A stretch of DNA of 64,000 bases from a virus: IMG/VR virus record IMGVR_UViG_3300008108_000181, positions 17,197 through 81,196 of that record; one strand, written 5' to 3'. Below, piece after piece: positions 32,483-39,491 of the stretch. The position numbers were made by a program, and so were the translations under genes. Numbering within the stretch: the first letter of the stretch is position 1; each line of letters opens with the position of its first letter. The notes below the pieces were generated by a model that ran no database searches, had not been told where the DNA came from, and worked only from the letters and a program-made list of their open reading frames with translations.

Positions 32483-33634
32483 TTAAATCAATGCTTTTTT
32501 GTTAAAATCACATTGAAGTAATTTAAATAAATCTCTAATCTCATTGTTTTTAAAAAAGTTTAAATAATTGTGAACTATTACATCTTGCATTTCATTCTTT
32601 AATTCTTTCAATTCATCCAAATTTAATTCGGATATAGTTTCCATCACCTTTACTATTTTATTAAATCGTTTTTTTAAATCAGTTTCAGTATCATAACTCT
32701 CATCCCACCAATTACTAAATGTTTTATAACCCAATTCATGTAATTTATTTAAAGTAAAAGGATTTCCAAATACAATAAAAGGTTGGCATAGGTAAATGGG
32801 TTTGTATGTTTTTTCGGATATAAAAAGTGAATCATTATCATATAGAGTTTCAGTAACGATATTTAAAAAAGATTTTAAATGAGCATCTACATTTAATCTT
32901 GCACCTCCACCTATTTTTTGATTATCCCAACGAGGGACATCATAATAATAGTTTTTATCAACACCTCGTAATGTTGTAATAGATTTATTTTTAAACTTTG
33001 AATTAGTAGTTAATTCATTAAACATTAATAATCTATTTTCTCTAGCTATACCGTTGAAACATAAAAAATGAAATTCAAAATTGGTATTCAAAAATTTAGT
33101 ATATTCAGTTTGATGTGAATTTACTTTTATTGAATCCAATTTAGATATTGATAGAAAGTTTATATGGTTACCAAAATAGTTGTAATTGATTATAGTAAAA
33201 TTATTATTTGAAAATTGAATTAGGTTTGAGGTAATTACAATAACATCATCCTTTGAAAAATTATATTTTTGACATAAGTCATTTATCCAATTCACACACG
33301 AAGTATTGAAATATCCTTCAAGTAAATAAGCAAAAACAATTTTACATTTTTTGAGTTTAATTGATGCTATTAAATTTTCATCTAAATCAATAGTTTTATG
33401 ATTGTCAAATAACTTATTATCAAATAGTATTATGGGATATATAAAATTTAAATTATTTTTAATAAAAAAATGAATACTACTTTCTTTAAAATTACCTAAA
33501 GTATTATCTAATAAATTTGAAATACTTGTTTTGCCACTGATAATCCAATCAGGTTCGATATCATAGTTGTGTAAGTTTAAATAAGATGTATTATCATAAC
33601 CAACATTTATTAATAAGTTTTTTAAATCACTCAT
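32483..33634 (-). CDS. Putative glycosyltransferase (GT-B, GT10-like ET...SEK motif)
   Basis: FLCFNG..R..R, FLNIVTET...FISEKTYKPI...PFIVFG; ends KKALI. Confidence 0.55.
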   Translation of the reverse strand: MSDLKNLLINVGYDNTSYLNLHNYDIEPDWIISGKTSISNLLDNTLGNFKESSIHFFIKNNLNFIYPIILFDNKLFDNHKTIDLDENLIASIKLKKCKIVFAYLLEGYFNTSCVNWINDLCQKYNFSKDDVIVITSNLIQFSNNNFTIINYNYFGNHINFLSISKLDSIKVNSHQTEYTKFLNTNFEFHFLCFNGIARENRLLMFNELTTNSKFKNKSITTLRGVDKNYYYDVPRWDNQKIGGGARLNVDAHLKSFLNIVTETLYDNDSLFISEKTYKPIYLCQPFIVFGNPFTLNKLHELGYKTFSNWWDESYDTETDLKKRFNKIVKVMETISELNLDELKELKNEMQDVIVHNYLNFFKNNEIRDLFKLLQCDFNKKALI

Positions 33635-34251
33635 ATCAAATCAGGTTCAAAGTACTTTTTATAAAAAATTTCAGATAATGATTTATGTGATTTAAATGAA
33701 AGATGATAATCTACTATTTGTCCTTCAGTTGCATCTTTTATAGTTTCAAGACCTTTTAAATCAGTCTGAACATTCCATAAAATTACTTTTTCACATCCCT
33801 TTTGTATGAGGAGTTTTTTAATCCATTCAAATCTTTTTATCTGTCTATTCTTATATAAAATGTTATCTGCAAAGTAATACTGGAAATTTATGATGGTTTC
33901 AAATTCATCATTCGTTAATCCATTTTCGGTTTTACTTTTTGAAAAATCGTGAACTATGGACTCAAAATGATTATTAATTGGTACATCAAATCGGTGGGCG
34001 TGTGTCATTCCAATAAACACATAATCATCTTTACTTATCTCTTTCCACGTATCAATTATAGTATCTATGATTGTATCGTTTGAACTTCCATTCTTTCCAA
34101 GATTTTTTAGTTCAACATTTAATTTATCACTTAACCATACTGGCCAAACCCCATCTCCTGATTTGTAATAACTTTCATAATACTCATCATTTGGATGACA
34201 CCCATGTCCTGCAGTATTACTATCACCAAATGTCCATAGTGTAGATTTCAT
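33631..34251 (-). CDS. SGNH/GDSL-like hydrolase or acyltransferase
   Basis: FGDSNTAG, NLGKNGSSN, DYHLS; ends EPDLI. Confidence 0.75.
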   Translation of the reverse strand: MKSTLWTFGDSNTAGHGCHPNDEYYESYYKSGDGVWPVWLSDKLNVELKNLGKNGSSNDTIIDTIIDTWKEISKDDYVFIGMTHAHRFDVPINNHFESIVHDFSKSKTENGLTNDEFETIINFQYYFADNILYKNRQIKRFEWIKKLLIQKGCEKVILWNVQTDLKGLETIKDATEGQIVDYHLSFKSHKSLSEIFYKKYFEPDLI

Positions 34252-34688
34252 AATTTAGAAGTATAACCAATACTTTCAACTAACTCAAACACAACATTAT
34301 TCCAATCTTCTATTTCAACATGGATTGAATTATATTTTTCTAACATAACACCACTAACTTTTCTGTAAAACCAAGTTGGTGAATACTTTGGTCTTGGTAT
34401 TTGTTTGGTGACATATAAGTTATAACCAAAACAAGTATCTGAAGTAAGTTCTTTAAACCAGACATATCCAATTGGTGTATTGTTTAATTTTAATAAAAAT
34501 AAATAATGTTTTGATTCTAATCTTAATTTGCAATCATCTATATCAAACATCCCATCCCACTTATATTCTGAATTAAATGAATCTATAAGTGATTGAATAT
34601 CGGAAATATAATTTTCTATATCCACTACAAGATGAGTGGTTAGTTCTTCTTTTATAAAATTATCTTTATGTAAAATATATTTTCTCAT
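34248..34688 (-). CDS. GNAT-like acetyltransferase (tentative)
   Basis: PIGYVWF...YNLYV...WN......ESIGY pattern. Confidence 0.5.
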   Translation of the reverse strand: MRKYILHKDNFIKEELTTHLVVDIENYISDIQSLIDSFNSEYKWDGMFDIDDCKLRLESKHYLFLLKLNNTPIGYVWFKELTSDTCFGYNLYVTKQIPRPKYSPTWFYRKVSGVMLEKYNSIHVEIEDWNNVVFELVESIGYTSKL

Positions 34689-35425
34689 CAGAATAATGTT
34701 TTTACATTTTTTACTTTATCATAAGGTAAATAAATAGAATCATATTTTTCTTTAAATTCATCATTAAGTTTTAGTTTTGTATCAAAGTGTTGGCTAGTAT
34801 TTATATTCATTAATTTAAAATCCATATTTAATTTATTTGATACCCACTCTTCTAATTTATACAACTCATTAAAATCAAACCATATTATATTAGGGTCATG
34901 GTTGTGCCACTTTGAATACGGAAATAATAAAATTTTTAACCAGTTTATACCATGTTGATTAACATTTAATTTATATTTTTTTATAAAAACTTGAACAATT
35001 ACTTCTACACTTTCTGCTGATTGTAAGTCATATTTTTTATACCATAATAATTCATCAATAGTAAGATTTGATAATTTATTAAATGTATCTAAATGATTAT
35101 ATCTATGAAACATTTTTAATATATGTTTCCATAAGGATATAAATCTTTCATACTTATTTCTCTTAACAGATATAACATCATAATGATATCCAAATTTTTC
35201 TTTTAAAATACGTATTTGCTCATGACCATGTACAAAGTCTATATCAAACTCTTGAAAATTTATTTGATTTATATTATCATATTGAGTGTGAATTAATTGA
35301 TTTTCTATATTAAACTCGGTATGATAGTGTTTAATTTCTAAATTTTGTTTTACACATGATGCCATAAATGCAGTAGATGCACATCTTGGTAATGATAAAT
35401 AAATAAATTTATTTTCTACTAACAT
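34688..35425 (-). CDS. Sulfotransferase-like protein (Sulfotransfer_2-type)
   Basis: FIYLSLPRCASTAF (5'-PSB-like), RNKYERFISLW (3'-PB-like); ends VKTLF. Confidence 0.65.
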   Translation of the reverse strand: MLVENKFIYLSLPRCASTAFMASCVKQNLEIKHYHTEFNIENQLIHTQYDNINQINFQEFDIDFVHGHEQIRILKEKFGYHYDVISVKRNKYERFISLWKHILKMFHRYNHLDTFNKLSNLTIDELLWYKKYDLQSAESVEVIVQVFIKKYKLNVNQHGINWLKILLFPYSKWHNHDPNIIWFDFNELYKLEEWVSNKLNMDFKLMNINTSQHFDTKLKLNDEFKEKYDSIYLPYDKVKNVKTLF

Positions 35426-36073
35426 TTAAATTATTGATTTTAAGTCTGTTTGTATTATACTAACATTACCAGAAACTGAAATTCTCTCAACTCCTTGTGT
35501 GTAAAATGGTGATACATAATGAATCAAATATGATGGAAATATAATTACCTCTCCCTTTTTAGGAGTGTGTTGAATCAAAGCTGATGGGGATAACAAATTA
35601 TTTACCAATTGAGTGTAAGGGGTTACATCGAGTTGTGTATTATTTCCATAAAAAAAAGATATTGTACCTGGTCGATATGATGCTTCACTAAATGGTTGTT
35701 CATTTATTATTTCTTGTGGGAAATCTAAATAAATTACAAATGATATTTCTCCATTATGATGTCTGTGTGGTGGATTATGTTCACCTGATTTTTGTCTATT
35801 AATCCATAAACTATTTAATGTTGTTTTATAGTTCGAATGGATAATACCTCTTTCAATTCGAATCCATTCGATATATTCTTTAATTTTTATTAATATATCT
35901 GATTCAAATTTCTTTTTTAATAATTCAGAATACGTTTTTTCGTTTTCAATATGACCAGCTAGGCTTGATTTAGCATCATCTCTTTGTTGTACACCGTCTA
36001 ATAACAAATCTGCCCTTAATTTTTCAGAGATAGTACTAATTAATACAGGTGGTCCAAATTTTAATTCTTTCAT
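35426..36073 (-). CDS. 2OG-Fe(II) oxygenase
   Basis: WINRQKSGEHNPPHRH, FPSYLIHYV, RISVSGN; ends LKSII. Confidence 0.85.
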   Translation of the reverse strand: MKELKFGPPVLISTISEKLRADLLLDGVQQRDDAKSSLAGHIENEKTYSELLKKKFESDILIKIKEYIEWIRIERGIIHSNYKTTLNSLWINRQKSGEHNPPHRHHNGEISFVIYLDFPQEIINEQPFSEASYRPGTISFFYGNNTQLDVTPYTQLVNNLLSPSALIQHTPKKGEVIIFPSYLIHYVSPFYTQGVERISVSGNVSIIQTDLKSII

Positions 36074-38773: not shown

Positions 38774-38797
38774 TAAAAATAATAACCAATTTTAATA

Positions 38798-39181
38798 CTA
38801 AATTATTTTATTTTTTCTGATATCCCAGTATGTTTGCCAATATTTAGTTCCATAATCATGACACAATTCATCATCTGGTTCAATTTCCTTTAATGAATAA
38901 AATTCAATAAATTTATCATCTTTTACTTTCCAATTGATATTAGGAGAATCTGAATGATTATAAATAGCACCATACCCTAATGGAAAGATTCGTTTGGTGG
39001 TGTGTTCATCAATTTGAAACAAATAATCTAGTAATGGATTGATATTAGAATTATAAATTGGTAAAAAATAACAAGTTTCAACTATCTCACCTATATTAAT
39101 TTTTTCCAAAGTAAATACACCAAAACCCTTTACTTCGTCTATATACCTTATTTCTAATTTAATTTTATTAAAAATTTTCAT
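38798..39181 (-). CDS. SET-domain methyltransferase
   Basis: KGFGVF, GAIYNHSDSPN, ELCHDYG; ends KNKII. Confidence 0.9.
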   Translation of the reverse strand: MKIFNKIKLEIRYIDEVKGFGVFTLEKINIGEIVETCYFLPIYNSNINPLLDYLFQIDEHTTKRIFPLGYGAIYNHSDSPNINWKVKDDKFIEFYSLKEIEPDDELCHDYGTKYWQTYWDIRKNKII

Positions 39182-39209
39182 TTATTAAAAAAATAAGCAC
39201 AACCCTTAT

Positions 39210-39491
39210 CTATATTAAACTATTTTTTTGTTTTCGTGTATTTCCAAAGACATCGGAATCTTCAACATCTAACCATTTATGAAGAGGACACGCATCGTAT
39301 CTTGGTGAGAATATTTTTTTACTAATAGGACACCCACACTCATCACATTTCAGATACCCACCAATCCCAGTAACCTTCTTATCACATCCGTTGCATATCT
39401 CTAATCGTCCTTCTGCTAATTTTAATTGAGATTCGGTGGGATTGTTAGCTATAATCCAAGACTCTGCTATCTCCTTTACTTTATCAAACAT
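39210..39491 (-). CDS. Small Cys-rich metal-binding protein
   Basis: RLEICNGC...CDECGC..K....CPLHKW; ends KNSLI. Confidence 0.8.
   Translation of the reverse strand: MFDKVKEIAESWIIANNPTESQLKLAEGRLEICNGCDKKVTGIGGYLKCDECGCPISKKIFSPRYDACPLHKWLDVEDSDVFGNTRKQKNSLI

Follow-up and report, generated by a model that had tools for sequence, protein, structure and literature searches.

The DNA described here is a stretch of 64,000 nucleotides, referred to as the window, which corresponds to positions 17,197 to 81,196 of the IMG/VR virus record IMGVR_UViG_3300008108_000181, a contig of 81,196 bp from an uncultured freshwater phage showing no similar DNA among 50,697 GenBank phage records. At 32483–39491, the window carries a row of ten genes, all on the minus strand, and the short tail at the C-terminal ends of their products is the subject of this work. 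Listed from 39491 downwards, these ends read KQKNSLI, RKNKII, IYKNII, KQKSLI, NNKTLI, DLKSII, NVKTLF, YTSKL, FEPDLI, and NKKALI. Taken from the open reading frame (ORF) listing and from a codon-by-codon reading of the 3′ ends, they agree with an earlier note on this DNA, which had reported that nine of the ten proteins end in two hydrophobic residues and that eight have a Lys nearby. Below, a C-terminus whose last two residues both belong to [LIVMF] is called a ΦΦ end, and the pattern [KR]-x(1-2)-ΦΦ-COOH a basic ΦΦ end.

The enrichment test proposed in that note gave a clear result: ΦΦ ends occur in 9/10 proteins of the row and in 10/101 of the other minus-strand ORFs of the contig (Fisher 1.7e-7), and basic ΦΦ ends in 8/10 and 5/101, respectively (Fisher 1.2e-7). 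Inside the same ten proteins, the two patterns have frequencies of 0.087 (binomial P 2.6e-9) and 0.0175 (P 3.8e-13), and with two genes removed as possible paralogues, P is still 2.8e-7. As the patterns were defined after the data had been seen, these P values are only indicative, and their replication in other loci is the stronger evidence. Though nowhere in the window is the AT content higher than in the row, whose GC content is 0.24–0.27, this composition falls far short of accounting for its C-termini, which answers the caveat on AT-rich codons that the note had attached to its own proposal.

The fold labels of the note stood in part. The SET domain and one of the two 2-oxoglutarate (2OG)-Fe(II) oxygenases pass the Pfam cut-off (Table 1), and the sulfotransferase assignment is supported by the profile of its family, which matches the 3′-phosphoadenosine-5′-phosphosulfate (PAPS)-binding part of heparan-sulfate 2-O-sulfotransferase with an E of 4.3e-5. 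The matches of the other 2OG oxygenase, the SGNH hydrolase, and the GNAT protein are sub-threshold, and the label “glycosyltransferase (GT)-like” of the protein of 426 amino acids (aa), for which there is no Pfam match and no PDB-profile match, was not confirmed. As for the genes being unrelated, no similarity is detectable within the pair of 2OG oxygenases or within the pair of large proteins of unknown family (426 aa and 383 aa), while the two sulfotransferase-like genes turned out to be related (43% identity, E 8e-64 in BLASTP), with aligned and homologous tails; as far as detectable similarity goes, they are the sole true pair of paralogues among the ten. The GNAT-like protein is the only member of the row lacking a ΦΦ end, and its family is tail-less, too.

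At 34688–37491, a 2OG oxygenase gene is followed by a sulfotransferase-like gene (start MLVENKF) with no spacer between them (TAA, ATG), an arrangement found twice over. Since the sulfotransferases are paralogous and the oxygenases are not, this suggests a recurring oxygenase–sulfotransferase pairing, perhaps to hydroxylate and then to sulfate.

Table 1. Genes of the row, the neighbouring ATP-grasp–Hint protein, and further genes of the window; the last column but one gives the share of distinct family members with a ΦΦ end in the survey loci described below.
Feature	Position	Strand	C-terminus	ΦΦ ends in family	Remarks
Small Cys-rich protein (zinc-ribbon-like, DUF6171-like), 93 aa	39210..39491	-	...RKQKNSLI	67/71	C-terminal extension of ~20 aa; last four codons 39213-39224
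SET-domain protein, 127 aa	38798..39181	-	...IRKNKII	12/12	Pfam SET E 2.8e-12
426-aa enzyme, unknown family (earlier “GT-like”)	37493..38773	-	...IYKNII	19/19	
2OG-Fe(II) oxygenase-like, 214 aa	36847..37491	-	...KKQKSLI	55/55	Pfam 2OG-FeII_Oxy_3 E 0.0034, below cut-off
Sulfotransferase-like protein, 247 aa	36103..36846	-	...KNNKTLI	79/81	
2OG-Fe(II) oxygenase, 215 aa	35426..36073	-	...TDLKSII		Pfam 2OG-FeII_Oxy_5 E 5e-16; phrog_81 E 7.7e-30
Second sulfotransferase-like protein, 245 aa	34688..35425	-	...KNVKTLF		Paralogue of 36103-36846
GNAT-like protein, 146 aa	34248..34688	-	...GYTSKL	1/14	Pfam Acetyltransf_1 E 0.027, weak
SGNH/GDSL-like hydrolase, 206 aa	33631..34251	-	...FEPDLI	39/50	ΦΦ end without Lys; Pfam GDSL E 0.003, below cut-off
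383-aa enzyme, unknown family	32483..33634	-	...FNKKALI	9/10	Last gene of the row, then 84 nt gene-free
Tail-less 645-aa protein	39661..41598	-			ATP-grasp ligase-like N-domain (1-318), Hint fold, hypervariable segment, S74-like C-terminal domain
120-aa protein, unknown family	42414..42776	-	...KKQKNVI	3/13	Adjoins phoH
B12-binding radical S-adenosylmethionine (SAM) enzyme	48126..49901	-	...SKKII		Outside the row; Pfam Radical_SAM E 1.4e-14
Tail-less paralogue of the Cys-rich protein	50280..50603	-	stops at CPAGKW		BLASTP E 6e-8
Carbamoyltransferase	16892..18607	-	...RKKII	3/20	Outside the row; family mostly tail-less

The Tail in Related Phages

Related clusters were surveyed in 97 loci from IMG/VR, found with the sulfotransferase-like protein and the neighbouring 645-aa protein (39661–41598) as queries; for the latter, the best 80 of 253 IMG/VR relatives were used. 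The 2007 same-strand ORFs of these loci were clustered into families and identical sequences were merged, leaving 1640 distinct proteins including those of our own contig. The ORFs are crude, having an ATG start and at least 50 aa, with overlaps removed greedily and only the “+” strand of each oriented locus considered. Among the distinct proteins, 747/1640 (45.5%) have a ΦΦ end, compared with 8.1% internally, and over the 64 families with at least four distinct sequences the share is bimodal, amounting to at least 75% in 23 families and at most 30% in 37, with just 4 in between. A deformylase-like family (ends GYEIV) and NT5C (ends NKLL) were left out of the tag analyses in spite of their high share, because they have family-specific ends of their own without the K/N-[STK] context. 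The 21 families that remain show no detectable mutual similarity and carry the tail in 75–100% of their distinct members.

These tailed families include four 2OG oxygenases, two sulfotransferase-like proteins, the small Cys-rich protein, SGNH hydrolases, a Trp halogenase, a radical SAM enzyme, the SET protein, a SAM methyltransferase, the two large unknowns, and DUF6734. Among the tail-less families are those of the 645-aa protein (1/73), DUF2061 (0/28), a protein with an HxGH-like N-terminus (0/31), adenosine-5′-phosphosulfate (APS) kinase (1/20), carbamoyltransferase (3/20), and the GNAT protein (1/14), as well as hsp20, an HD protein, and an epimerase. Weighted by family, the tail is rich in Lys and Asn from position −8 onwards, followed by K (.46) or N (.25) at −3, K (.34), S (.23), T (.18), or N (.09) at −2, L (.61) or I (.29), together 0.90, at −1, and I (.57), L (.28), or F (.08) at the last position. 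The conservation in orthologues that the note had named as a further check is pronounced: among the 120 best of 491 homologues of the 214-aa 2OG protein in an independent database of 5.8 billion proteins, with identities of 48–87%, 119/120 have a ΦΦ end and 63 end in KSLI. Related loci hold up to four 2OG families plus halogenase and sulfotransferases, the window holding two 2OG genes.

Every tailed cluster stems from a single group of T4-like, uncultured phages, including a complete genome of 288,673 bp (G001), in which 40/399 ORFs have a ΦΦ end. Ten tag-like ends lie at 38.6–54.4 kb around the gene of the ATP-grasp ligase-like protein, and in the core block 9/11 ORFs have them. Outside this cluster, ΦΦ ends are found in 30 of ~385 ORFs, which is near the compositional expectation. 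Far from the ligase gene, tag-like ends are borne by four ORFs whose N-termini resemble SGNH proteins, by a 609-aa ORF, and by a carbamoyltransferase, these identities not coming from Pfam.

Many related clusters contain three genes in line (L003:4669-5689, L006:1846-2283, L124:3895-4905), coding for an APS kinase (Pfam E 1.4e-19), a protein of 126 aa whose N-terminus is HxGH-like, and a DUF2061 membrane protein. This arrangement, absent from the window's row, looks like a PAPS supply module for the sulfotransferases.

An Addition at the Protein Level

The codons and the surroundings of 610 distinct tailed genes speak for a signal in the protein. In the tail, codons for Leu, Ile, Ser, and Thr track bulk usage: Ser is encoded by both AGY and TCN (AGT.39, TCA.28, TCT.20), Leu by TTA (.70), CTA (.11), and TTG (.11), and all three stop codons are used after the tails. 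The next gene overlaps the tailed one in 280 cases and begins after 0–3 nt in 91, 4–30 nt in 98, 31–100 nt in 86, and more than 100 nt in 41 cases, while 14 tailed genes have none. Bulk-like codons together with tails at every downstream spacing exclude a nucleotide motif or coupling signal.

That the tails are appended after the catalytic cores, as the note had maintained, is borne out on several sides. The extension of the Cys-rich protein is an add-on, because its paralogue at 50280–50603 stops at the residue aligned with W73, while the copy in the row runs on for 20 residues; two more tail-less copies occur in related loci. Within families, the number of residues from core to end varies (e.g., 13–21, 5–23, or 7–25), while the very end is constant. 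Homologues of the 215-aa 2OG oxygenase in cultured pelagiphages and cyanophages end without a tail, and of 20 proteins encoded near the 2OG homologues in pelagiphage Mosig, S-RIM2, and P-SSM2, none has a ΦΦ end. In the dioxygenase/halogenase array of Syn9, the tag is present in 0/17 and a ΦΦ end in 1/17 proteins. Judged from these sequence comparisons, the tag exists, is selected at the protein level, and has been added convergently after unrelated catalytic cores.

The ATP-Grasp–Hint Protein Next to the Row

The 645-aa protein was modelled by AlphaFold 2 (AF2) with a pLDDT of 83.5, its N-domain alone reaching 86.3. Searching with the model, Foldseek found a Hint fold similar to those of the TvoVMA intein (7e-7), a bacterial intein-like (BIL) domain (1.3e-6), and hedgehog (2.3e-6). 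The fold ends in His491-Asn492; in 73 sequences, N492 is invariant and H491 nearly so. For the N-domain, no sequence-level match was found in Pfam or PDB. Its best Foldseek match is yeast glutathione synthetase (E 3.8e-5, probability 1.0, TM 0.40/0.29), followed by YgiC/YjfC and GspS (to 7e-4); VIA Z-scores are 8.9 (rmsd 4.6, 214 aligned), 8.8, and 8.4, with TTLL, LysX/ArgX, and RimK scoring lower. By these modest matches, the modelled N-domain has the ATP-grasp fold of ligases such as glutathione synthetase, GspS, and YgiC, whose targets are the C-terminal carboxylates of peptides or proteins. The putative catalytic residues, among them D9, E22, N24, K202, R139, and R257, are invariant in the 73 sequences.

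The segment after the Hint fold is hypervariable and rich in Cys, Tyr, and Gly; in short forms, its median length is 30 residues, of which 19% are Cys, 14% Gly, and 9% Tyr. In the form of the window, a fibre-type S74-like domain follows (Pfam E 0.0076), with a conserved ...QK|SD..KEN at the predicted S74 cut. The cores of short forms end in K-[LIVAFM] in 29/57 sequences and have a Lys within the last three residues in 44/57, and long forms show ...QK before the predicted cut. With its Lys and one hydrophobic residue, the end of the hypervariable core bears a faint resemblance to the enzyme tails.

The family of the 645-aa protein, called the anchor in the following, comprises 380 representatives at 50% clustering and has no relatives among the 50,697 GenBank phage records. 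A search of 185,579 species genomes with the ligase domain gave a single match, a 3.7-kb contig (L121:1-3697) in a metagenome-assembled genome of Candidatus Pelagibacterales from a lake, which keeps the order 2OG, anchor, Cys-rich, and 426-aa protein, with tails. Probably of phage origin, this contig gives a hint that the host may be of a freshwater SAR11 type. A database protein of 291 aa consisting of the N-domain only was considered as a standalone ligase and dropped, its IMG/VR relatives being ordinary 500-aa fusions.

Every tailed cluster of the survey loci has at its middle a conserved protein without a tail, and the orthologue of the anchor is the only one of this kind. Where loci were found by the sulfotransferase, the anchor gene is present in 17/19, the other two contigs ending before reaching it. 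Distant anchor variants combine the ATP-grasp N-domain with three Pfam-significant Hint domains (Intein_splicing, Hint, and PT-HINT, all above cut-off) and end after His-Asn-Lys, having no Cys-rich end; their neighbours are still tailed in 17/27, 12/26, and 10/21 ORFs. Four architectures of the anchor, whose N-domains are about 30% identical, go with one and the same tag consensus, and between anchor clades the tails show only minor differences. In the loci compared, the tag thus co-occurs with the predicted ATP-grasp–Hint protein, even where that protein lacks a Cys-rich end. Two of the distant anchors (L125:10001-12739 and L126:10001-12736) are each followed by a conserved 50-aa ORF (L125:12743-12895; L126:12745-12897), which could be a separate small partner or precursor.

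Other domains that might read a C-terminus were looked for in the phage records, and among those sought (PDZ_2, TPR_8, ClpP, ClpS) none proved to be conserved. PDZ_2 was found by Pfam in 0/3 of these records and in 14/14 cellular control genomes, host proteins not having been searched, and TPR_8 in 0/4, a result limited to this TPR model and to phage records. A complex prediction of the 645-aa protein with ATP, two Mg, and a 36-residue C-terminal stretch of the Cys-rich protein, made without controls, gave ipSAE values of 0.02 and 0.00 and counts neither way as to binding.

Other Features of the Window

Some tailed genes of the window lie outside the row (Table 1). The orthologue of the 120-aa protein in the complete genome G001 ends in ...KKTLI. 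A 74-aa ORF at 55068–55292 weakly resembles ClpS, with sub-cut-off E-values of 0.0055 in Pfam and 8.8e-4 in a genome search, and itself ends in ...DVKII. The T4-type late promoter word TATAAATA is not enriched in the window, with 14 copies found and 16.9 expected. One copy, at 41628–41635 before the gene of 39661–41598, has the wrong orientation, and ten other “+” strand sites exist; judged from the coordinates and uncounted, the “+” strand copies are mostly located in short gaps, directly upstream of a minus-strand gene and in inverse orientation to it. Scans for sigma-70 promoters and terminators revealed nothing informative.

Possible Roles of the Tail

The common C-terminal recognition signal postulated in the note held up as far as a selected, protein-level signal in 21 families is concerned; between scaffold, substrate, compartment, and degron, the note had made no choice. 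The tail, borne in this phage and in hundreds of relatives and reading roughly Lys-Ser/Thr-Leu-Ile, looks like an undescribed address or docking label, for which there is a candidate reader: comparative genomics points to the neighbouring protein of 39661–41598 as its putative partner. We consider the chances about even that the tail is a docking tag recruiting interchangeable enzymes to this ATP-grasp–Hint protein. In such a tag, a flexible linker that is rich in Lys and Asn and varies in length would precede [K/N]-[S/T/K]-[L/I]-[I/L/F] with a free carboxylate, and the tag would have been appended independently to many unrelated tailoring enzymes. Through it, every enzyme would be connected to a single partner encoded by the phage, for which the ATP-grasp–Hint protein is the best candidate, and the docked enzymes would be held beside the hypervariable segment, or another payload, carried by that protein. 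The payload would be too variable for direct recognition; the ATP-grasp domain is the one constant folded element on offer. The logic of leader peptides would thereby be inverted, with a constant recognition domain on the substrate or hub and a short peptide on the enzymes. We infer, in short, that the tag binds a partner, that the ATP-grasp domain is its reader, and that the enzymes modify the protein bearing this domain.

Several points weigh against docking on the anchor. That any partner at all binds the tail is itself something we infer. The co-occurrence of tail and anchor is confounded by phylogeny, because all tailed clusters stem from one phage group, in which a lineage or host factor would co-occur equally. 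Some tailoring-type enzymes are untagged (carbamoyltransferase with 3/20, rSAM-SPASM with 3/11, and GNAT with 1/14), and in G001 tailed genes lie far from the anchor, namely the 609-aa ORF, the carbamoyltransferase, and the SGNH-like ORFs. An argument from cosubstrate-supply enzymes being untagged is weakened, since the ends of the APS kinases, K-L-x-[IL], come close to the tag. In fold, the N-domain is matched only modestly (TM 0.3–0.4; Z 8.9, where unmatched models commonly reach 7–8), and the exclusion of other readers covers, among C-terminus-binding domains, Pfam PDZ_2 and TPR_8 in phage records.

Should docking hold true, a four-residue tag, necessary and sufficient for bringing any enzyme to one hub, would represent a new recruitment principle for post-translational modification and a compact, portable tool to scaffold enzymes. 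It would also explain the shuffling of more than 20 enzyme families around a fast-evolving payload in abundant freshwater phages, and it makes the function of the 2OG/halogenase/sulfotransferase gene sets of aquatic T4-like phages, a question open since at least 2010, testable. More tentatively, and in our opinion somewhat doubtful, the whole may be an inverted leader-peptide system, in which a permuted ATP-grasp domain would have turned into a receptor for C-termini, or would double as one, and in which the enzymes would carry a four-residue “leader” and be exchanged at will against a payload that would be hypervariable, Cys-rich, and self-excising. At its boldest, the idea would have the ligase capture or edit the tails covalently.

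C-terminal degrons occupy the very end of a protein and expose a free carboxylate, as this signal does, and the tail might instead be a degradation or remodelling tag, its basic-then-hydrophobic end being read by a host or phage AAA+ unfoldase or protease and limiting the lifetime of the enzymes. It resembles the MuA-type ClpX motif with its basic run and small or hydrophobic end. ClpP was found in 1/4 related records and is absent from the other three, including two complete genomes, and one weak ClpS-like match, the sub-cut-off ORF at 55068–55292, was found in four records. Other proteins of the same clusters (anchor, DUF2061, HxGH protein) are untagged, and ΦΦ ends are not avoided elsewhere in G001; a degron would give no reason why this enzyme class alone is tagged in this phage lineage alone, and we regard it as unlikely.

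Lower still do we rate the tail as a substrate of the ligase, the ATP-grasp domain activating its carboxylate as an acyl-phosphate and joining it to an amine, such as a Lys near the core end or a polyamine, so that the enzyme, or a product, would be coupled covalently. The nearest folds, glutathione synthetase and GspS, activate the C-terminal carboxylate of a peptide, and TTLL, RimK, and LysX act on protein C-termini; the invariant putative catalytic residues and the Lys kept at the core end (44/57 short forms, ...QK before the predicted S74 cut in long forms) would fit as well. Yet no precedent is known to us for using up 10–20 different enzymes covalently, and the ligase may equally act on the core's own C-terminus.

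Targeting to a place, be it a membrane surface reached by a polybasic and hydrophobic end, the prohead or virion, or another compartment, is the least probable of the functional explanations. One C-terminal peptide on many unrelated enzymes is the logic of peroxisomal targeting signal 1 (PTS1) and of cargo loading into encapsulins or microcompartments; the Lys-rich stretch from −8 to −2 would have a preference for acidic lipids, the clusters often encode a DUF2061 membrane protein, and the anchor of the window bears the fibre-type S74-like domain. On the other hand, two hydrophobic residues next to the charge of a carboxylate are ill suited as a membrane anchor, the search gave no gene for a shell or a receptor (TPR_8 in 0/4 records), and a signal fixed strictly at the very end favours a carboxylate-reading pocket over such targeting.

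Finally, the absence of any function, with the tail arising from AT-rich composition, shared ancestry, or a ribosome-binding or translational-coupling signal at gene junctions, can practically be dismissed, for although the row is so AT-rich, contains one paralogous gene pair, and 280/610 tailed genes overlap the next gene, the internal frequency of 0.081–0.087 faces 45–90% at the ends, the tag is found on 21 families without detectable similarity, its synonymous codons match the bulk, in 141 tailed genes the next gene is more than 30 nt away or missing, and tail-less paralogues occur in the same genomes.

Comparison with Known Systems

Class I PDZ ligands have the form X-[S/T]-X-Φ-COOH; a PDZ protein of the host might serve as a reader, but such proteins are usually periplasmic. 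Like these ligands and like C-terminal degrons (ssrA, MuA-type ClpX motifs), the tail would be read at a free C-terminus and has basic residues upstream. Ser or Thr stands at −2 in 41% of family-weighted tails and in 5/10 proteins of the window, and the last residue is hydrophobic in nearly all; Lys is as common as Ser/Thr at −2.

PTS1 ends in -S-K-L-COOH, with the consensus [SAC]-[KRH]-[LM]-COOH, and is read by the TPR domain of Pex5. Both PTS1 and the tail are signals formed by the last three to four residues of a protein and their free carboxylate, frequently with basic residues ahead of them, and occur on many unrelated enzymes, PTS1 being transferable. The family-weighted tail differs from the PTS1 consensus in having two hydrophobic last residues, K at −3, and another order of basic and hydrophobic residues, and it belongs to a phage in a bacterium, where there is no organelle.

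A similar plug-in logic, with a C-terminal peptide recruiting unrelated proteins to one complex, is known from the cytosolic iron–sulfur cluster assembly (CIA) targeting complex, for which the article describes a C-terminal tripeptide [LIM]-[DES]-[WF]-COO- on unrelated clients that is necessary and sufficient for recruitment (Marquez et al., PMC10245660). In contrast to that acidic and aromatic motif, the tail consensus has no acidic residue at −1 and no aromatic last residue; moreover, the CIA system is eukaryotic and its clients are substrates, while the tagged proteins here are enzymes.

The closest gene arrangements are those of cyanophages, whose clusters hold several unrelated 2OG dioxygenases (Iyer et al. 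2010, PMC2938197). Related bacterial clusters add Trp halogenases, sulfotransferases, and PAPS synthetases and were predicted to be peptide-modifying (PMC2938197). In the part of this article covered, which leaves aside its supplementary data, the phrase “C-terminal tail” is absent and no shared tail is described, nor is such a tail mentioned in the part covered of Zaragoza-Solas et al. 2020 (PMC7029224). Within these limits, our literature searches found no description of a shared C-terminal tail on phage tailoring enzymes and so agree with the statement of the earlier note that none was known in phages. The row shares with the cyanophage tandem arrays, so far as these are described there, the presence of several unrelated 2OG dioxygenases within one run of genes in a T4-like phage. 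It differs from them in its tag and its neighbour, the array of Syn9 having neither the tag (0/17) nor an ATP-grasp–Hint gene.

In recruiting catalysts by terminal extensions that bind a partner, so that they share a tethered substrate or compartment, the proposed docking recalls the docking domains of nonribosomal peptide synthetases and polyketide synthases, the dockerin–cohesin pair, and encapsulin cargo peptides. Unlike those modules, which comprise 10–70 residues and are specific for a pair or a shell, the tail comprises 4–7 residues common to all the enzymes, with presumed receptor and presumed substrate forming a single fusion protein. Reminiscent in layout, too, are the leader peptides and recognition elements (RREs) of RiPPs, peptides made on the ribosome and modified after translation, with their hypervariable core, constant handle, and many promiscuous tailoring enzymes per cluster. 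No RRE is detectable by Pfam in the tailed enzymes, and, as proposed here, the polarity of RiPP systems would be inverted, with the short peptide residing on the enzymes and the folded reader on the precursor.

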